Assembly (NCBI GenBank): GCA_036574075.1
Contig: JAINCN010000030.1
Span: 18,029 to 82,028 of the forward strand
DNA length: 64,000 bases
Source of the DNA: Deltaproteobacteria bacterium
GTDB lineage: Bacteria > Desulfobacterota > Dissulfuribacteria > Dissulfuribacterales > UBA5754
Direction: 5' to 3'
Below, in pieces: positions 8,199 through 57,970 of the stretch. The notes under the pieces are model-generated. The model saw only the letters and a program-made list of their open reading frames with translations. It searched no databases and was not told where the DNA came from. Each line of letters starts with the position of its first letter. Within the stretch, counting starts at the first letter, position 1. A program made the position numbers and the translations under genes.

Positions 8199-8312
8199 TA
8201 TGGCCGGTTTGACCCGCCTGCAGTTCGTGAAGACTTGGATCTCATGCGCGGTGTGTGCTCGACGCCCCTTGCTTTTTTTCGGACCAGTGATAGATTTGCC
8301 CGCCAATAAACA

Positions 8313-8485
8313 CCTGAATCCGCGAGCCTACGGCCGGGGTATTTGTTCCGTGCGGCAAATAGCCCCGTCCATGGGGGCAGATTTGCTGACGGCGCCCATC
8401 CGTGGGCGCCTCCATGCACAAATATCCCCGCCGTCAGCATATTCTATGAAATCGAAAGGTTGAGTGCATATCTCACAGATTCAGG
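8313..8485 (+). repeat. MITE-like palindromic element, copy B (both termini present)
   Basis: cctgaatccgcgag ... ctcacagattcagg termini; internal blocks as in the other copies. Confidence 0.8.
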
Positions 8486-17037: not shown

Positions 17038-17251
17038 GGCCGTCACAGAGACAGGATGACTTGGAGACAGATCCGATGCCGCTGAAAAAAAACCGATCTT
17101 CTGATCCAGCTCAAAAAAACCGATTCTCACGGCGTTGTTTCAATTTTCCAGTCCATGCGGCTGACGCTAACTACGCCTCATTCCTGGAAGATTTCGCATC
17201 TTGCATCCCGAGTTTTTTGAGCGGCATCATACCCCATAAGGTCTTTTAAAC

Positions 17252-34502: not shown

Positions 34503-34653
34503 CCTGAATCCGTGAGCCTACGGCCGGAGTATTTGTTTCGTGCGGCAAATAGCCTCCTGTCCATGGGGGCGGATTTGCCGCTCAAGCCTATTTATGGGCG
34601 CCTCCATCCACAAATACCCCGGCCGTAGGCTTATGCTGTGAAATCGAAAGGTA
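34503..34653 (+). repeat. MITE-like element, copy D (right terminus replaced)
   Basis: cctgaatccgtgagcctacggccggagtatttgt...gaaatcgaaaggt, then abruptly continues into the family-2 repeat. Confidence 0.75.
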
Positions 34654-35190
34654 GGGAGGGGGTGCGGGGCAGTGCCTCATCGGCCGGATAACCGCTTTGG
34701 TGATGCAACTGCCTTTTCGGCCATGGACGCGAGGTGCCAAGTGAGGCCCTGCGGCCGCCTGCCCTGGCTTTCTGGATCCGGCCTGATTCAGCACTACCCC
34801 GCACCCCCTCCCTGGATTACATGGGCGTACTTCAAACCTTACACGAGGGTTTGGACGGATGGGTGCACGGCGCAAGTGGAGGCTGGTGGGGCGGGCCGTT
34901 GTGGAGGCGGGCGGATCCAGAAAGCCAGGATAAGCGGGCACCGGGCCTTGCATAGCACCTTGCGTCATCGGAAAAGACAGCCGCTACATCGCCAAAGCGG
35001 TTATCCGACCGCCGGAACAACGGCCCGCCCCACCTGCCCATGAATTTAGGCGGAAAGCGGATCCAGAAAGCCAGGATAAGCGGGCACCAGGCCTTGCATG
35101 GCACCTTGCGTCCTCGGACAAGACCGCCGCTGTATCGCCAAAGCGGTTATCCGACCGCCGGAACAACGGCCCGCCCCACCTGCCCATATT
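34653..35190. repeat. family-2 long hairpin repeats: one inverted unit plus two direct ~131-bp units
   Basis: Unit 1 (34653-34813) is bracketed by the perfect 17-bp inverted repeat agggagggggtgcgggg/ccccgcaccccctccct. Units 2 (34885-35034) and 3 (~35048-35180) share gcggatccagaaagccaggataagcgggcacc...ccaaagcggttatccgaccgccggaacaacggcccgccccacc, and unit 1 is their reverse complement at roughly 70-75% identity. Confidence 0.85.
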
Positions 35191-35299
35191 GAGGAATGCC
35201 TGACAGCCGGGAAACGGCAAGCTTGCCGAATCTGGCGGCCTTGTCTCCCCTGTATCATCCTATATGCGATGGCATTTATGGAACATGCGGGAGGCCGTC

Positions 35300-35584
35300 A
35301 TGGAGAACAGGGATCTCTATCTTGCTGCGTACGACATCACGGAGGCAAAGAGGCTCCGCGACGCCCTTAACGTACTAAAAGGCGTCTCCACTGGTGGCCA
35401 GAAGTCCGTATTCGAGTGTTTTCTCAACAACATCGAGAAGAAGGGGCTTCTTTCCCGGGTCGGCAGGATCCTGGATCCGGCTGAGGACCGGTTTCTCCTC
35501 CTTAGGCTCGATCCGCGTGCGCGGGTCCACACCCTCGGGATCGGGGTCGAGCCTTCCGATCCCCCGTTTTTCTATTTCGGGTGA
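35300..35584 (+). CDS. cas2: CRISPR-associated endoribonuclease Cas2 (copy a)
   Basis: 94 aa; MENRDLYLAAYDITEAKRLRDA...VFECFL...RFLLLRL ferredoxin-like Cas2 pattern with the N-terminal Asp; gggagg 6 nt upstream of ATG 35300. Confidence 0.85.
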   Translation: MENRDLYLAAYDITEAKRLRDALNVLKGVSTGGQKSVFECFLNNIEKKGLLSRVGRILDPAEDRFLLLRLDPRARVHTLGIGVEPSDPPFFYFG

Positions 35585-35588
35585 TGCC

Positions 35589-36563
35589 ATGGGAACGCTC
35601 TATCTCGACCGTTCAGGCCTGGAACTCCGGATCGACGGGGACGCCGTGGCCCTTTACACGCGTGGTGAAAGGAGCGGCACGGTCCCGATTGGCCTGCTCG
35701 AAAAGATCGTCATCAAGGGGGAGATTTCCTTAACGAGCAATGTCCTTGGAAGGCTTGCTGATGCCGGGGTATCTGTTCTCATGCTTTCGGCCCGTCACTC
35801 GCGAAGGGTCGCATTCGTGCACGGACGATTCCACAACGACGCCCGTATCCGGCTCGCCCACTACCGGGCCGTCCTTGACGACGAATACGCGCTTGGCTGG
35901 TCCCGCCGTATCGTCCGTGCGAAGATATCAGCCCAGGTCGCCTTTTTGAAAAGGGCCGGAGACGAGAAGCCGGAGGCCAAAAAGGACCTTTTCGGCCCCA
36001 TCGCCGGGCTCAAAAGCTGTGGTGAGGCCCTTTCAAACGCCGTCACCACCGACGGCGTACGAGGACTTGAGGGGGCCTCTGCAAGGCTCTATTTCGCGGG
36101 CCTTTCGCACCTCTTTCCGCCTTCGCTTCAATTCAACGGACGCAACAAGAGACCCCCTCGGGATCCTGTCAATGCAGTCCTTTCCCTCGCTTACACCCTT
36201 GCGCATCACGAGGCCGTGAGGGCCTGCCATCTGGCCGGCCTTGATCCGCTCCTCGGCTTTCTCCACAAGCCGGCCTGGGGCCGGGAATCCCTTGCCTGCG
36301 ATCTCATTGAGCCCTTTCGGCCCAGGCTGGATGCCTGGGTGTGGGGGTTATTCCGCGAAAGGATCCTCAGACCTGAGGATTTCCACCGGGACAAGGGTGC
36401 GGTCCTCCTCGGCAAGGCCGGACGTCACCGTTTCTACGAGGCATACGAGGCAAAGGGCCCAGTCTGGAGCCGGGCCCTCATCAGGCTCGCCCGTGCCCTT
36501 GCCTCCTCCGTGACGAAAAAGACCCCGGATCTCTTTCTTGCGGACGAGGAGGACGACTCATGA
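35589..36563 (+). CDS. cas1: CRISPR-associated endonuclease Cas1 (copy a, catalytic motifs intact)
   Basis: 324 aa; N-terminal beta domain TLYLDRSGLELRIDGDAVAL...; GLEGASARLYF (Glu), LDPLLGFLH (His), SLACDLIEPFRP (Asp/Glu). Confidence 0.9.
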   Translation: MGTLYLDRSGLELRIDGDAVALYTRGERSGTVPIGLLEKIVIKGEISLTSNVLGRLADAGVSVLMLSARHSRRVAFVHGRFHNDARIRLAHYRAVLDDEYALGWSRRIVRAKISAQVAFLKRAGDEKPEAKKDLFGPIAGLKSCGEALSNAVTTDGVRGLEGASARLYFAGLSHLFPPSLQFNGRNKRPPRDPVNAVLSLAYTLAHHEAVRACHLAGLDPLLGFLHKPAWGRESLACDLIEPFRPRLDAWVWGLFRERILRPEDFHRDKGAVLLGKAGRHRFYEAYEAKGPVWSRALIRLARALASSVTKKTPDLFLADEEDDS

Positions 36564-37342
36564 GAAGGCCGCTGTATCTCCTGAGAGGGGAAGGGACAGA
36601 GGTCCGGCTCGATGGACCCTCCCTCCTCGTTTCAGGCACACGCAGGGCGGACGGCCGTTACCCTCTGGCCCAGGTCAGCCGTGTGACCTCCGACAGCGCG
36701 GTCAGGTGGGAAACCGAGGCCATCATTGCATGCCTCGGAAGCCGCATCCCGGTGACGTTCGTCAGCGGCCGGGGCAGAATCATCGGATTCTGCCTGCCGG
36801 TCGGGGAGCTGAAATCCAGCAACGCATCGAAACTTCGTGAGTTTTTCGCCTTTCCGTTCTGGAAGGAGGTCTACGACAATTGGCTCTCAGCTGAGACGAG
36901 AAAGGCCGTTCTCGATCAACTCGATGCATTTCACGTCAGGACCGAGGATCTGAGGCCCATGGCGGCAAGGCGGTTTCTGCTTGACCGTGTAGCTGCAAAC
37001 GTGTCAAGGGCCGAGAGGGACCGGATCATGGACAGATTAAACGGGCTTGCTGGATCCCTCCTCGCAGGGCTCTTCTCCCATGAAAGGCTCCCAACCCGGT
37101 ATCCTGTTACAGGGGCAGGGGTGGTGAACCTGCACGAGGATTTCCTGTCCGTCATTTCCTGGGAGCTTTTGCCGATCGTAATGGAGGTTGCGAGAAGGGG
37201 CTACAGGGATCGCGATCCGAATAGCCTGGCCTTGCTTGTCGGCGCCTTCGAGAAGAGATCCACTGTGATCAAGGATCGGCATGCGCGACTCCTCGAAAGT
37301 CTTCTTCTGAGAATTCATGACGCCTACCTCGTTGGACAATGA
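36560..37342 (+). CDS. divergent Cas1-like protein (copy b, catalytic residues apparently lost)
   Basis: 260 aa; ATGA overlap with cas1a. The N-terminal PLYLLRGEGTEVRLDGPSLLV...IPVTFVSGRGRIIGFCLP parallels the Cas1 beta domain. The aligned GLEG reads GLAG, and no GFLH-type His motif was found. Confidence 0.6.
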   Translation: MRRPLYLLRGEGTEVRLDGPSLLVSGTRRADGRYPLAQVSRVTSDSAVRWETEAIIACLGSRIPVTFVSGRGRIIGFCLPVGELKSSNASKLREFFAFPFWKEVYDNWLSAETRKAVLDQLDAFHVRTEDLRPMAARRFLLDRVAANVSRAERDRIMDRLNGLAGSLLAGLFSHERLPTRYPVTGAGVVNLHEDFLSVISWELLPIVMEVARRGYRDRDPNSLALLVGAFEKRSTVIKDRHARLLESLLLRIHDAYLVGQ

Positions 37343-37345
37343 GTC

Positions 37346-37708
37346 ATGAGCGACCAAGGCAAGCGCCCCTATCTTGTTGCGTACGACATTGCTGATCCGA
37401 AAAGGCTCTGCCTCGTCCACAAGATCCTCACCAGATACGCCGTCCCTGTCCAGTATTCCGTGTTTATCGGCACCTTTACCCCCACGAACCTTGAGGCCCT
37501 CAAAAAGGAGCTTGTGCAGGTCATAGAAAATGACGAGGACGACATAAGAATGTATCCTATCTCACGCAACGCCGATCCCATCACCATCGGCCGGCACTTC
37601 CTGCCGGAGGATGTACTGCTTTTTATCCAGAACAAACGGGCTGATATCACGCCCCTTGTCAGGGGTGGAGTCCATGGGCATGATCTCTGCGACAAGAAGA
37701 AAAAATAG
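37346..37708 (+). CDS. cas2: CRISPR-associated Cas2 (copy b)
   Basis: 120 aa; KRPYLVAYDIADPKRL...VQYSVFIGTF...IRMYPI; 3-nt gap after cas1b. Confidence 0.85.
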   Translation: MSDQGKRPYLVAYDIADPKRLCLVHKILTRYAVPVQYSVFIGTFTPTNLEALKKELVQVIENDEDDIRMYPISRNADPITIGRHFLPEDVLLFIQNKRADITPLVRGGVHGHDLCDKKKK

Positions 37709-37809
37709 GAGGAAAAGTAAGCAAATGGCGAATTGGCTTTTCAAACGTTATCAAAATTGGCAAGGTGGCTTGTATGAGGCTGGAAATATTTCAAAAAAAA
37801 GGAGGAGCT
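37709..37809 (+). promoter_or_regulatory. putative CRISPR leader
   Basis: 101-bp AT-rich stretch between cas2b and the first repeat, with repeated attggc motifs and an A8 run. No promoter hexamers could be assigned confidently. Confidence 0.5.
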
Positions 37810-40800
37810 ATTGATCCGATTGCCCTGATGAAGAAGGGATTAAGACTTCCATGCAGAGATAAATCCGCCTAAATAGCACTGGCATTGATCCGATTGCCCT
37901 GATGAAGAAGGGATTAAGACACGGGAAAAGCCACCAACTTTCCCTGCTGGATCAATTGATCCGATTGCCCTGATGAAGAAGGGATTAAGACTCGTCGGTT
38001 ACGTGGGATATGATCAGTTGGGAGCCCGTCATTGATCCGATTGCCCTGATGAAGAAGGGATTAAGACGAAAAGACATGGCAACAATCACAGTAAGGAAAA
38101 AATTGATCCGATTGCCCTGATGAAGAAGGGATTAAGACCTCCATGCAGAGATAGACCCGCCGAAACAGAAATTGATCCGATTGCCCTGATGAAGAAGGGA
38201 TTAAGACACGTGAGCTGGGCGGAAACCCAGATTTTTCACGATTGATCCGATTGCCCTGATGAAGAAGGGATTAAGACCAGCAGCCGCGCAGCCAGATCGC
38301 GCGGCAGGCATTGATCCGATTGCCCTGATGAAGAAGGGATTAAGACCGTCGTGCCAGACGATGATCCGCGCAAATGAGGAATTGATCCGATTGCCCTGAT
38401 GAAGAAGGGATTAAGACGACAACGCACGTCGCTAATTCGAACACGCGTCGATTGATCCGATTGCCCTGATGAAGAAGGGATTAAGACAGATCAGTTTGTG
38501 CATAATCAGCAAATGTCTCGATTGATCCGATTGCCCTGATGAAGAAGGGATTAAGACCCAAGCCACAACTCTAATTTCGGACTGGGATAGAATTGATCCG
38601 ATTGCCCTGATGAAGAAGGGATTAAGACTTGAGTTTGATTTGTTTTCTTCCGGATCGTAAATTGATCCGATTGCCCTGATGAAGAAGGGATTAAGACAGG
38701 CTGAGGCCACCGATGCGGCAATAAACGCTATTGATCCGATTGCCCTGATGAAGAAGGGATTAAGACCTTCGCCCGTTTTTCATTGTTAACGGCCACGTAC
38801 ATTGATCCGATTGCCCTGATGAAGAAGGGATTAAGACTTATTAGTAGTTAATATAATCATCAATATCATCGATTGATCCGATTGCCCTGATGAAGAAGGG
38901 ATTAAGACTACAACAATCGCCATTTTTTTGCCCTCCTTAATATTGATCCGATTGCCCTGATGAAGAAGGGATTAAGACATTTCCCATTCTGCTTCTTCAT
39001 CCTCATCCTATTGATCCGATTGCCCTGATGAAGAAGGGATTAAGACTTGCCGATTAGGGCAAGTACTTTTTGCTCAGGTGTATTGATCCGATTGCCCTGA
39101 TGAAGAAGGGATTAAGACCGCTTGCGAGCGCTCTTGCCGATTCTCATCTATTAATTGATCCGATTGCCCTGATGAAGAAGGGATTAAGACTGACATTCCT
39201 CCTTCATTTATGTTTAGTGTTTTATTGATCCGATTGCCCTGATGAAGAAGGGATTAAGACCATTGTGCCCCTTGGGTTGGGATGGCGGCGCTATTGATCC
39301 GATTGCCCTGATGAAGAAGGGATTAAGACTTTTCCCTCTGTTGATTGTTAACGGACACGTACTATTGATCCGATTGCCCTGATGAAGAAGGGATTAAGAC
39401 AGATCATGGAGATTTTTTTGAACTTGAAACCCATTGATCCGATTGCCCTGATGAAGAAGGGATTAAGACTCGACGCTGTCCCATATTTTCATTTCCCATA
39501 CTATTGATCCGATTGCCCTGATGAAGAAGGGATTAAGACTTCTGTAGGATAATAACTATCAACAAGATCTTGGTATTGATCCGATTGCCCTGATGAAGAA
39601 GGGATTAAGACTGATTTGCCTTGCAGACCTCAGCGTCTGCAACATTGATCCGATTGCCCTGATGAAGAAGGGATTAAGACCCCTCGTTCTTGCAAAACTT
39701 GATTAATCCCTTGATTGATCCGATTGCCCTGATGAAGAAGGGATTAAGACATCCGGGCCGTCGATGTCCCGGATCCATGCATTGATCCGATTGCCCTGAT
39801 GAAGAAGGGATTAAGACCAGGGCGCTTGAAGATGTTGAGCCTGTCGGCATTGATCCGATTGCCCTGATGAAGAAGGGATTAAGACCGTTGCCTGCGCGCG
39901 GATTTTTAAAGCGCTTGCAAGTGGATTGATCCGATTGCCCTGATGAAGAAGGGATTAAGACCTCTCAAGGGGAGCCATCAAGAAAAGGGCGCCGCCTATA
40001 TTGATCCGATTGCCCTGATGAAGAAGGGATTAAGACGCCTTGTGTTGGGTAAGATTCAAAATTTTCACATTGATCCGATTGCCCTGATGAAGAAGGGATT
40101 AAGACAGAGATTATAGATTTCAGAAATAATTTCACCATCATTGATCCGATTGCCCTGATGAAGAAGGGATTAAGACCCGACCCTTAAGGTCATCATAGGG
40201 CTCGCCCTTGATTGATCCGATTGCCCTGATGAAGAAGGGATTAAGACGAGATCCGGGCCATCAATATCCCGGATCCAGGCCCATTGATCCGATTGCCCTG
40301 ATGAAGAAGGGATTAAGACCGACCTTTTGACTTATATCTCTTGTGAGTGTTCATTGATCCGATTGCCCTGATGAAGAAGGGATTAAGACTTGTGGGCAAT
40401 GTACTTGCCCACAAGGGCCATTACTTTCATTGATCCGATTGCCCTGATGAAGAAGGGATTAAGACACGAGGGGTTACCTTGCTTTCGGGCGTCCACTGCC
40501 ATTGATCCGATTGCCCTGATGAAGAAGGGATTAAGACGCCCCGAGGGTTAAGTTAGCCCTCAGGGCTTGTATCATTGATCCGATTGCCCTGATGAAGAAG
40601 GGATTAAGACCATAATCTTTCCTCCTTTAAATTAAGATTTATCGGCATTGATCCGATTGCCCTGATGAAGAAGGGATTAAGACTAGAAGACCGGAGCAGT
40701 TTCCAGTACATCCACATTGATCCGATTGCCCTGATGAAGAAGGGATTAAGACTTCCATAGATAGACGCCGTACCATCCATAAATATGGATTGATCCGATT

Positions 40801-42237
40801 GCCCTGATGAAGAAGGGATTAAGACACCGGCCTGATCCATGACTTTCTGAAAACTTGTATCTATTGATCCGATTGTCCTGATGAAGAAGGGATTAAGACG
40901 AAGGCGGATAACCCGCCTTTTCTCGTTTTTCGATTGATCCGATTGCCCTGATGAAGAAGGGATTAAGACTTTTTCTTAAGTGTGATTGTTGCCATTTTCT
41001 TCTATTGATCCGATTGCCCTGATGAAGAAGGGATTAAGACCCTATTAAGGCAAGCACTTTTTGCTCCGGCGTTAATTGATCCGATTGCCCTGATGAAGAA
41101 GGGATTAAGACAGCTCGGCGCAGTGTTCTTCGGGGACATCCACGATTGATCCGATTGCCCTGATGAAGAAGGGATTAAGACACCATGACCCCGGAGTGTA
41201 GCATGCCTGCCTTATTGATCCGATTGCCCTGATGAAGAAGGGATTAAGACTCCACGGACTGGGAAAGCTGTCAGCTTCCCATCAATTGATCCGATTGCCC
41301 TGATGAAGAAGGGATTAAGACTTATTGGTCGCGATATATTTCGCGACCAAGGTAAATTGATCCGATTGCCCTGATGAAGAAGGGATTAAGACCTATTTCG
41401 ATGCCACGACCATAAATAGACGACTCCATTGATCCGATTGCCCTGATGAAGAAGGGATTAAGACCCCCGAGCTTGTTAGGCTCGGGGTTGGAGCTCCATT
41501 GATCCGATTGCCCTGATGAAGAAGGGATTAAGACCGAATTTGATTTAGAATTAAGTGCTCTTTTTAATTGATCCGATTGCCCTGATGAAGAAGGGATTAA
41601 GACTTTTGCTCACTGTCCATGTGCGCAACGATTTTTATTGATCCGATTGCCCTGATGAAGAAGGGATTAAGACAGATAAAGACTGTTTCATAATTTCCTC
41701 CTTTATTAGATTGATCCGATTGCCCTGATGAAGAAGGGATTAAGACCGAATTTGATTTAGAATTAAGTGCTCTTTTTAATTGATCCGATTGCCCTGATGA
41801 AGAAGGGATTAAGACAGGCAGAGTCTATAGACTCTGCCTCTCCATGCATTGATCCGATTGCCCTGATGAAGAAGGGATTAAGACGAGCCCCAGTTTCCCA
41901 ATCTACTTCCGGGGCTGGGATTGATCCGATTGCCCTGATGAAGAAGGGATTAAGACGAAAGAGCCATGGGGACCTCCTTTTTTTGTTTATCATTGATCCG
42001 ATTGCCCTGATGAAGAAGGGATTAAGACGCACTAACTTTGAGTACTCTCTCCTTTCCTCCGATTGATCCGATTGCCCTGATGAAGAAGGGATTAAGACAG
42101 AAGTTTTTTCCATGGTTTCCTCCTTTCGTCATTGATTCGATTGCCCTGATGAAGAAGGGATTAAGACAATAAGCGGGACCAATGCCTCGTTCTGCTTAGG
42201 ATTGATCCGATTGCCATGATGAAGACTGTAGGGGCGA
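37810..42237 (+). CRISPR. CRISPR array: 63 repeats of 37 nt, 62 spacers of 30-39 nt
   Basis: Repeat ATTGATCCGATTGCCCTGATGAAGAAGGGATTAAGAC. Variants are R44 (40863, gattgTcctg), R62 (42131, attgatTcg) and the degenerate terminal R63 (42201, attgatccgattgccAtgatgaagaCTGTAGGGGCG). I parsed every unit: spacer lengths sum to 2097 nt. Orientation is set by cas-proximal leader, distal decay and the ATTAAGAC 3' end. Confidence 0.97.
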
Positions 42238-42293
42238 AAAATTTTCGTCCCTACAATTACTTTGATCCGATTGCCGGATGCACTGCGCTTATC
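42226..42293. repeat. REP-like palindromes and a repeat fragment at the array's distal end
   Basis: tgtaggggcgaaaaattttcgtccctaca hairpin, repeat fragment ttgatccgattgcc (42253-42266), then ccggatgcactgcgcttatccgg hairpin. Confidence 0.6.
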
Positions 42294-42313
42294 CGGCCTG
42301 CAGGGGAAAAGGT

Positions 42314-43067: not shown

Positions 43068-43245
43068 CCGTGAATCCGTGAGATATGCACTCAACCTTTC
43101 GATTTCACAACATAAGCCTACGGGCCGGGGTATTTGTGGATGGAGGCGCCCACGGACGGGTCTCGAACGGCAAATCTGCCCCCATGGATGGGGGCTATTT
43201 GCCGCACGAAACAAATACCCCGGCCCGTAGGCTCACGGATTCAGG
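43068..43245 (-). repeat. MITE-like element, copy E (reverse orientation, full length)
   Basis: ccgtgaatccgtgagatatgcactcaacctttcgatttcac...ggcaaatctgcccccatgg...ccgtaggctcacggattcagg. Confidence 0.8.
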
Positions 43246-43717
43246 GGATATATATAGGCTTTTCCCCGCGCTTTTCAGGGGAAATGGACTCCCATCGCTT
43301 TCTGATCTGCTCCTTACGCTCGGGCGGAAGTTTCCTGAACCACTCGAATCTCCTACGGATGCGTTCCCGCTTCTCAGGCGGGAGCTCCCTGAATTTTTTG
43401 AACCTTTTTCTTAATAACTCGCGTTTTTCCGGTGGGAGATCCTTCCATCGGCTGAACCTCTCCAGCGCGATTTCGCGTTCCTCCGGGGACATATTCATCC
43501 ACCTGTCTGCTCCACGTCTCAGGCGGTCCTTCTTTTCCGGGGACAGATCCGCCCAGCGCCCGGCAAAGGGTTTGAGGACCTCCTGTTCCTCCCTGGTAAG
43601 TCCATCCCAGGGCAGATCCTCCTTTCCGGAGGCGGATGAAAGGGAAGGGAGCGTCGTCAGAACTCCGATAGATGCAAGGATGACGATCCAGTATCTGCAG
43701 TGAAGCCTCCAGTTCAT
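43241..43717 (-). CDS. DUF3106 domain-containing protein
   Basis: 158 aa; signal peptide followed by reiterated W..L(S/P)PE(K/E)R motifs (RWADLSPEKKDRL, RWMNMSPEEREIA, RWKDLPPEKRELL, KFRELPPEKRERI, WFRKLPPERKEQI). Confidence 0.7.
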   Translation of the reverse strand: MNWRLHCRYWIVILASIGVLTTLPSLSSASGKEDLPWDGLTREEQEVLKPFAGRWADLSPEKKDRLRRGADRWMNMSPEEREIALERFSRWKDLPPEKRELLRKRFKKFRELPPEKRERIRRRFEWFRKLPPERKEQIRKRWESISPEKRGEKPIYIP

Positions 43718-57795: not shown

Positions 57796-57970
57796 CCTGA
57801 ATCCGTGAGCCTACGGCCAGGGTATTTGTTCCGTGCGGCAAATAGCCCCCGTCCATGGGGGCAGATTTGCCGTTCGAGCCCCGTCCATGGGCGCCTCACT
57901 CCACAAATACCCCGGCCGTAGGCTTATGCTGTGAAATCGAAAGGTTGAGTGCATATCTCACGGATTCAGG
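57796..57970 (+). repeat. MITE-like element, copy F (best-preserved reference copy)
   Basis: cctgaatccgtgag...ctcacggattcagg 14-bp terminal inverted repeats; internal inverted pairs cctacggccagggtatttgt/acaaataccccggccgtagg and gcggcaaatagcc/ggcagatttgccg; flanked by tgaca on both sides. Confidence 0.85.

Follow-up and report, generated by a model that had tools for sequence, protein, structure and literature searches.

We describe here a CRISPR array, and the four adaptation genes beside it, in a 64,000-nucleotide stretch of DNA (hereafter the window) from contig JAINCN010000030.1 of the metagenome-assembled genome (MAG) of a Deltaproteobacteria bacterium (GCA_036574075.1). The sole cas genes of the window form a four-gene operon, which lies directly upstream of the array and on the same strand. 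The features of this locus, in window coordinates and with protein lengths in amino acids (aa), are the following.

35300-35584, + strand: cas2a, 94 aa; Cas2 (PF09827) called on an identical Logan contig, annotated at NCBI as MEF3168706.1, 'Cas2'
35589-36563, + strand: cas1, 324 aa; Pfam Cas_Cas1 at 2.5e-75 and NCBIfam cas1 at 3.3e-61, with the start taken from the Logan gene call
36560-37342, + strand: cas1', 260 aa; PADLOC PDLC01185, 'Cas1, diverged variant, second in the loci', at 7.7e-17
37346-37708, + strand: cas2b, 120 aa; Pfam CRISPR_Cas2 at 1.2e-18
37709-37809, + strand: leader, 101 nt, with the A-rich end TTTCAAAAAAAAGGAGGAGC; conserved in the related loci L102, L104 and L113 despite all spacers differing
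37810-42237, + strand: CRISPR array of 62 full repeats, a degenerate terminal repeat and 62 spacers, transcribed from the + strand

A fuzzy pattern search of the window recovered 62 full copies of a 37-nt repeat (ATTGATCCGATTGCCCTGATGAAGAAGGGATTAAGAC) between 37810 and 42167. Sixty of them are perfect and the other two (40863-40899 and 42131-42167) carry a single C>T substitution each, while a degenerate 63rd repeat at 42201-42237 keeps only about its first 25 nt. The 62 spacers measure 30-39 nt, mostly 32-35 nt, and only one exact duplicate was found among them (spacers 51 and 54, at 41535-41566 and 41747-41778). The near-identity of the direct repeats and the similar length of the spacers, unique except for this pair, identify a CRISPR array, and one that a preliminary description of this DNA had rightly called large and well maintained. 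No copy of the repeat was found on either strand in the rest of the window. The end of cas2b is separated from the first repeat by 101 nt, so that cas1, cas2 and the leader stand at one end of the array and the decayed repeat at the other, distal one; near the leader, at 37656-37684, there is a weak promoter-like site. The array is assigned to the + strand because the leader and the cas genes are upstream, the decayed repeat is at the far end, and the spacers containing a ribosome-binding site (RBS) are biased to the antisense orientation, as described below. The short CCCT/AGGG stem, 8-nt loop and 8-nt ending that had been proposed for the repeat were reproduced on folding the RNA: a 4-bp CCCU/AGGG stem closes a loop of 8 nt and is followed by exactly 8 nt, AUUAAGAC. 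By sequence and fold the repeat is thus of the Cas6 type, with a 3' hairpin and an 8-nt segment as the predicted 5' tag of the CRISPR RNA (crRNA).

All four open reading frames (ORFs) of the adaptation operon are intact. Cas1 scores 253.7 bits against a cut-off of 22.3 for Cas_Cas1, it retains the catalytic Glu, His and Asp, and its motifs GxEG, GFxH and DLIEP are invariant in 22 homologues. Cas1' is a shortened paralogue of Cas1: the two families align over their full length in hhalign with a probability of 97.7-98.5%, and in the alignment with Cas1 the segments bearing the catalytic Glu and His are absent. The Asp-equivalent, D194, is the sole catalytic residue kept in the Cas1' family, where it is conserved at 70% in 154 members. 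In an exhaustive profile search this family comprises 654 clusters at 50% identity, of which 393 reach E <= 1e-10, with lengths of 250-285 aa in nearly all cases. Pairwise BLASTP gives only 27% identity between Cas2a and Cas2b; at other loci the first Cas2 of the module shares 54-59% identity with Cas2a. A mechanical ORF call had given a 389-aa 'cas1', which we rejected as an over-extension hiding cas2a on the basis of the gene call on a Logan contig 100% identical to this region. The adaptation genes of the preliminary description are therefore present, but as a module of four genes and not of two, since cas2a had been hidden by the over-extended ORF. An AlphaFold model of Cas1', built from an alignment of four sequences, reached a predicted confidence (pLDDT) of 50 and was discarded as too poor.

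The 59 non-overlapping ORFs of at least 80 aa in the window were all scanned with Pfam, and the unannotated ones also with NCBIfam and PADLOC. In these scans no effector, cas6 or CARF gene and no reverse transcriptase (RT) match was found in the window, which gives no indication of RT-assisted adaptation, and the Cas6, Csx1, Cas10, Cmr3-6 and Card1 proteins of related loci gave no tblastn match to it. The window thus contains no cas10/cmr2 with cmr3-6 that would define a type III-B locus in place, and the earlier statement that it holds no effector, processing, CARF or RT gene stands. Its remaining genes are those of an ordinary chromosome (mutS, flagellar, futalosine-pathway, lolA, nadA, purL, cell-wall enzyme and similar housekeeping genes).

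In order to place the repeat, its 3' 24 nt, comprising the hairpin and ATTAAGAC, were searched against one genome per GTDB species. They were found in 99 stretches, mostly of Gammaproteobacteria (Competibacteraceae, Ectothiorhodospira, Leucothrix, Plasticicumulans). These 24 nt are identical as the search demanded, while the 5' 13 nt of the repeat differ from genome to genome, which is the pattern expected if the hairpin and the tag are the part recognised by a protein. The ORFs flanking these arrays were clustered and representatives of the clusters annotated. The commonest neighbours are Cas2, Cas1 and Cas1', Cas1 and Cas1' being called at about 20 loci each, and an antisense shadow ORF masks cas1 in nine additional calls at eight loci. 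The ORF cluster 'c4' found beside many arrays is this antisense shadow of cas1, and was rejected as a separate gene. Cas6 neighbours the array at nine loci, and Cmr or Csm genes and CARF proteins of the Csx1, Can/Card1 and Csm6 kinds are also recurrent neighbours; Cmr1-6 occur with Cas10b in L069, L011, L076 and L089, and Cas10a occurs in L072, L021 and L078. None of the annotated recurrent neighbour clusters is a type I gene (cas3, cas7, cas5, cas8). The repeat family is thus linked in other genomes to type III systems, including two loci in which everything is contiguous (L113 and L114), and in L104 and L113 a Cas6 (PF10040) adjoins the same repeat or one that differs by 2 nt. The recurrence of the 3' 24 nt beside cas6, Cmr or Csm genes and CARF effectors agrees with the previous assignment to a Cas6-processed class 1 repeat. 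The exact 37-nt repeat gave no match in JGI metagenome contigs.

The closest relatives of the locus were reached by tracing the nearest Cas1' homologues to their contigs. In L104, whose Cas1' is 80% identical to that of the window, the gene order is csx1-cas6-cas2a-cas1-cas1'-cas2b and the repeat carries the 2-nt difference. L113 (ENA, 34.5 kb) and L114 (JGI) belong to the same lineage, with a Cas1 in the 90% cluster of the window's own, and they present on a single contig the order cmr3-cmr4-cmr5-(toxin-antitoxin pair)-cmr6-card1-csx1-cas6-cas2a-cas1-cas1'-cas2b, followed by an array of at least 125 perfect repeats. The Cas6 of L104, used as a query, led to a Cas6 (P0004) 83% identical to it on the Logan contig SRR15502205_3326 (L108), and the same run, SRR15502205, also yields contigs 100% identical to window positions 35158-37836 and to the flank containing a 192-aa ORF that precedes the locus on its left. 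L108 encodes the C-terminus of Cas10, Cmr3, Cmr4, Cmr5, Cmr6, a Card1-type CARF nuclease, MazE/PIN, a Csx1-type CARF-HEPN protein and Cas6; PADLOC reports the Cas10 C-terminus, Cmr3-6, CARF-PD-DExK and CARF-HEPN, and P0004 is identified by Pfam CRISPR_Cas6 and by the NCBI annotation.

The deposited accessions bring the two contigs together. At NCBI the genes of L108 fall within MEF3168217-226 (217, 218, 221, 222 and 226) on a contig of 37,919 bp, and those of the window are MEF3168677 (MutS), 705 (the 192-aa ORF), 706-709 (Cas2a to Cas2b) and 716 (PurL) on a contig of 87,726 bp; the proteins of both are labelled 'MAG: Deltaproteobacteria bacterium'. From this consecutive numbering in one series we infer a single deposited MAG, whose locus tags bear the prefix K6360.

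The spacers themselves carry a signature of the same kind of system. We searched them for a strict RBS and start-codon pattern, namely CAT, 4-10 nt, and then CCTCC, CTCCT or TCCTC. In the window the pattern occurs in 5 spacers in the antisense orientation and in none in the sense orientation, of 59, against a shuffle mean of 0.44 and with 0 of 2000 shuffles reaching 5. The following are examples.

38909-38941, 40611-40646, 41674-41709, 41957-41991 and 42099-42130: spacers exactly antisense to a Shine-Dalgarno sequence and start codon

The other arrays of the repeat family gave 34 antisense against 3 sense cases among 1332 unique spacers, L113 gave 7 against 0, and over all arrays examined the figures are 46 against 3. 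These crRNAs would therefore be complementary to mRNAs, a hallmark of RNA-guided, transcription-dependent type III immunity. Stop-codon openness, used as another strand test, was not significant (p = 0.6 in the window and p = 0.26 in the other arrays). The share of RBS-covering spacers is 8.5% in the window and about 6-9% in this lineage, compared with 2.6% in the other, gammaproteobacterial arrays; the higher share could be a real preference for translation initiation sites or could merely reflect stronger Shine-Dalgarno motifs in the targets.

Spacer content is also informative on the activity of the array. A sister MAG (L102), with cas genes about 88% identical, has an identical 37-nt repeat and a near-identical leader and shares no spacer with the window, and L113 likewise has none in common with it. 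With the repeat fixed and no spacer shared, the spacer content must have turned over completely, and the comparison with L102 fits the earlier suggestion that the array is young or actively homogenised. Five pairs of spacers are related and non-identical (75-87% identity), 1/5, 14/22, 18/44 and 28/35 in the same orientation and 4/43 in opposed orientations, which suggests that variants of the same invader regions were sampled again and again. With up to 5 mismatches allowed, no self-target was seen in the part of the window outside the array.

Taken together, the array and its adaptation genes are very probably one half of a type III-B (Cmr) system whose Cas6, Cmr and CARF half lies on another contig of the same genome. 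The direct basis for this is the gene content, the synteny of the relatives, the co-occurrence of repeat and Cas6, the spacer turnover and the spacer strand bias. Of the two possibilities left by the preliminary description, that of machinery encoded in trans is supported by the contig carrying cas10-cmr3-cmr4-cmr5-cmr6-card1-csx1-cas6, which shares both its sequencing run and its accession series with the window, and that of a free-standing adaptation-plus-memory locus is not supported. The description had also named an ordinary split locus as the outcome under which its view would fall, and that outcome applies here, with effectors and Cas6 on another contig, because the cas10-cmr-cas6 contig shares the run and the MAG accession series.

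Several points weigh against this assignment. That the two halves belong to the same MAG is judged from the accession numbering, the shared run and a shared family of dispersed elements described below, and binning errors are possible. L108 is cut, and as a result cas10 is present there only as its C-terminal part and cmr1 was not observed; when that part served as the query for a full-length Cas10, fragments alone were returned. The hairpin of the repeat is thermodynamically weak when folded alone (-6 kcal/mol, z = -1.5), Rfam holds no CRISPR direct-repeat family matching the repeat, and the window is without any Rfam match at the gathering threshold. Searches of phage, plasmid and IMG/VR collections yielded no protospacer: whole-array BLAST gave only a chance match to T4 (E = 0.4) among phage records and only an orphan array of the repeat family, from Methylocaldum, among plasmids, and degenerate consensus patterns derived from the related spacer pairs gave no match in IMG/VR.

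By analogy with established type III-B biology, from which the steps of the mechanism are inferred, the system may be expected to work as follows. The four adaptation proteins would insert new spacers at the leader-proximal repeat, and the leader would drive transcription of the array. Cas6 would then cleave each repeat at the 3' base of the hairpin, leaving the 8-nt 5' tag AUUAAGAC on the crRNA. The crRNAs would be loaded into a Cas10-Cmr3-Cmr4-Cmr5-Cmr6 complex able to recognise complementary transcripts, and binding of such a transcript would lead to RNA cleavage by Cmr4, while Cas10 would make cyclic oligoadenylates and these would activate Csx1 (CARF-HEPN) and Card1 (CARF-nuclease).

The point at which the two halves are separated can be located within a dispersed element of about 170 nt resembling a miniature inverted-repeat transposable element (MITE), with the terminal inverted repeats CCTGAATCCGTGAG...CTCACGGATTCAGG. 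Alignment of its copies, together with the tails of the cas6 contigs, places five in the window, of which the third is the one concerned.

about 970-1140: MITE copy
8312-8480: MITE copy
34505-34652, + strand: right-truncated MITE copy, inside which, at about 34600, synteny with the relatives carrying cas6 upstream breaks
43080-43250, - strand: MITE copy
57797-57960: MITE copy
34653-35299, + strand: repeat-rich spacer separating the breakpoint from cas2a; L102, L109 and L111 conserve it

Homology of the window to L104 or L113 begins at 35263, just before cas2a, and extends further upstream in L109 (GCA_973317295.1) and L111 (JGI 3300000227). In these two loci, about 155 nt after cas6 and its terminator, there is sequence 97-98% identical to window positions 34600-34817. 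The ancestral order must therefore have been cas6, a repeat-rich spacer of about 0.85 kb, and cas2a. To the left of about 34600 the window has instead the interior and the left terminal repeat of the MITE, preceded by the unrelated 192-aa ORF. The contigs L108 and L112 both end inside an element of the MITE family.

Such a junction may be real or may be a product of assembly. Under the second possibility the locus would be contiguous in the cell (cmr...csx1-cas6-MITE-cas2a...array), the left flank of the window would be a misjoin within the multi-copy MITE, and the missing effector would be an artefact. The contiguous loci of the relatives agree with this, as does the behaviour of the three k=31 Logan contigs of SRR15502205, all of which break at the repeats flanking the junction, and a short-read assembler could be led astray by the 53 nt at 34600-34652, in which MITE copies are 94-98% identical. 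Against it, the NCBI contig runs cleanly through the four other MITE copies of the window, and the copy at the junction continues without a break from the 192-aa ORF and includes its whole left terminal repeat. In the deposited MAG this ORF and cas2a also have adjacent accessions. The MITE at the tail of the cas6 contig L108 is only 85.7% identical to window positions 34547-34587, and the two are thus different copies. We consider the misjoin rather unlikely, if a real contender, and a true rearrangement between MITE copies, which separated the two halves, is the explanation that we moderately favour, because the MAG assembler passed the other MITE copies and the one at the junction differs from the one on L108. 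Whether rearrangement or misjoin is the cause, the system keeps the same biological identity.

A further possibility is that the array is a relic or an orphan, in which case the contig with Cmr and cas6 would come from another strain or organism and only adaptation genes and an unused array would be present here. The absence of any effector in the window is compatible with such a state, neither MAG binning nor co-occurrence in one sample proves a single genome, and the repeat family does include orphan arrays, such as the one on the Methylocaldum plasmid NZ_OX458334.1. Nevertheless we regard it as improbable. Nearly perfect repeats (60 of 62), intact adaptation ORFs and complete spacer turnover with respect to L102 are not what a relic would present, and the strong antisense bias implies selection for function. 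The cas6 contig, for its part, bears the genome-specific MITE and accessions of the same series, and its Cas6 is 83% identical to the Cas6 that stands beside a nearly identical repeat in L104 and L113. It is more improbable still that the array works with a DNA-targeting effector, of type I or another kind, encoded elsewhere in the genome, and not with Cmr: the Cas1 does score with I-G, I-C and I-D Cas1 models nearly as well as with the generic ones, but the annotated recurrent neighbours of the repeat family are only of type III, with no cas3, cas7, cas5 or cas8, and an antisense-to-mRNA bias is unexpected for DNA targeting that depends on a protospacer adjacent motif (PAM).

The locus is thus very probably an ordinary type III-B locus split in two, and its identity is new only as a further case in an uncultured deltaproteobacterial MAG. 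Type III-B (Cmr) systems with Cas6-processed crRNAs are known, for instance, in Pyrococcus furiosus and in Marinomonas mediterranea. With these the present system shares Cas10/Cmr2, Cmr3, Cmr4, Cmr5, Cmr6, Cas6 and CARF effectors, encoded on the partner contig and in the relatives, as well as a repeat of about 37 nt with a small 3' hairpin, an 8-nt tag and spacers complementary to transcripts. It differs from them in the tag, AUUAAGAC here and AUUGAAAG/C in the known systems, in the four-gene adaptation module with its dead Cas1 paralogue, and in the position of the effector half, away from the array in this assembly. The use of CRISPR arrays in trans by type III effectors is established, as are stand-alone arrays and adaptation modules. 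As in those cases, array and effector occupy separate places in the genome, but in the present case the sister lineages are contiguous, so that the separation is recent and can be traced to a single MITE breakpoint. The effector-less array of this MAG window would then be the detached half of a standard type III-B system and, as it was posed, the question matters little; it illustrates how arrays come to look like orphans through dispersed repeats or through assembly at them. What can be reused is the repeat family, a widespread one of type III, in which a 24-nt module of Cas6 hairpin and tag is conserved and which travels with a cas2-cas1-dead cas1'-cas2 operon.

This adaptation module, with its dead Cas1 and double Cas2, is the only under-studied part of the locus. 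A literature search turned up neither a functional nor a structural study of the Cas1/Cas1' pair or of the PDLC01185 family; the PADLOC profile, which is matched by the 260-aa protein of the window, the second cas1 of its locus, is itself only a catalogue entry. The nearest parallel is the type III RT-Cas1 module of Vibrio vulnificus YJ016, in which Cas2A and Cas2B, about 70% identical to each other, are both required for acquisition, and which has Cas6 and Csx1-type ancillary genes nearby (PMC6821258). The module of the window is likewise linked to type III and has two distinct Cas2 proteins, but it has no RT, an inactivated Cas1' accompanies Cas1, and its Cas2 proteins are 27% and not about 70% identical. 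Within the repeat family an RT occupies the slot of Cas1', between cas1 and the array, only in L037, L042, L073 and L093, which suggests an exchangeable accessory position. We tentatively put forward, as a possibility falling short of a favoured one, that the four-gene module is an obligately asymmetric integrase, in which the dead Cas1' would take the non-catalytic position of each Cas1 dimer and Cas2a and Cas2b would form a heterodimeric bridge. This could fix the orientation of spacers as they are integrated in a type III system that lacks a PAM. If so, the asymmetry of the integrase would add to the antisense bias of about 15:1 that is otherwise credited to selection.

The region upstream of this operon (34653-35299) probably holds its promoter. 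Tandem Repeats Finder detects in it a 146-bp tandem unit, in 1.9 copies at 34911-35187, which may have a promoter or regulatory role or may be a further mobile repeat. Partial copies of the unit are also present at 17101-17229 and, inverted, near 34680-34740.

At the opposite end of the array, a perfect hairpin overlaps the decayed last repeat, as found by a terminator-like match and by direct reading of the sequence.

42227-42255, + strand: 13-bp perfect hairpin, TGTAGGGGCGAAAAATTTTCGTCCCTACA

This hairpin, a possible terminator of the array, is followed by a second fragment of the repeat, of 14 nt (TTGATCCGATTGCC). After this fragment, within 42201-42300, there is a palindrome, GCCGGATGCACTGCGCTTATCCGGCCTGCA, resembling the repetitive extragenic palindromic (REP) sequences.

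Some minor observations concern the related loci. Toxin-antitoxin modules are found inside the Cmr operons at positions that differ by lineage, at 445-972 and 6650-7284 in L108 and at 1-490 and 3038-3669 in L113; the insertions are MazE/PIN and DUF6922 with a small ORF in the former, and AbiEii and RHH/PIN in the latter. The Methylocaldum array mentioned above (L101) is a small one at about 9.9-10.6 kb of the M. szegediense plasmid NZ_OX458334.1 (25.7 kb), which has no annotated cas gene; a type III system on the chromosome may serve this plasmid-borne array. Two contigs of a MAG named 'Anaerolinea thermophila', DYKW01000117.1 (L015) and DYKW01000116.1 (L030), carry the purL, DUF7826 and AI-2E transporter flank of the window and end in the identical repeat. 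The lolA, ompH, ompA, flgH and flgI genes of the window point to a diderm, and the label or the binning of that MAG therefore looks wrong.

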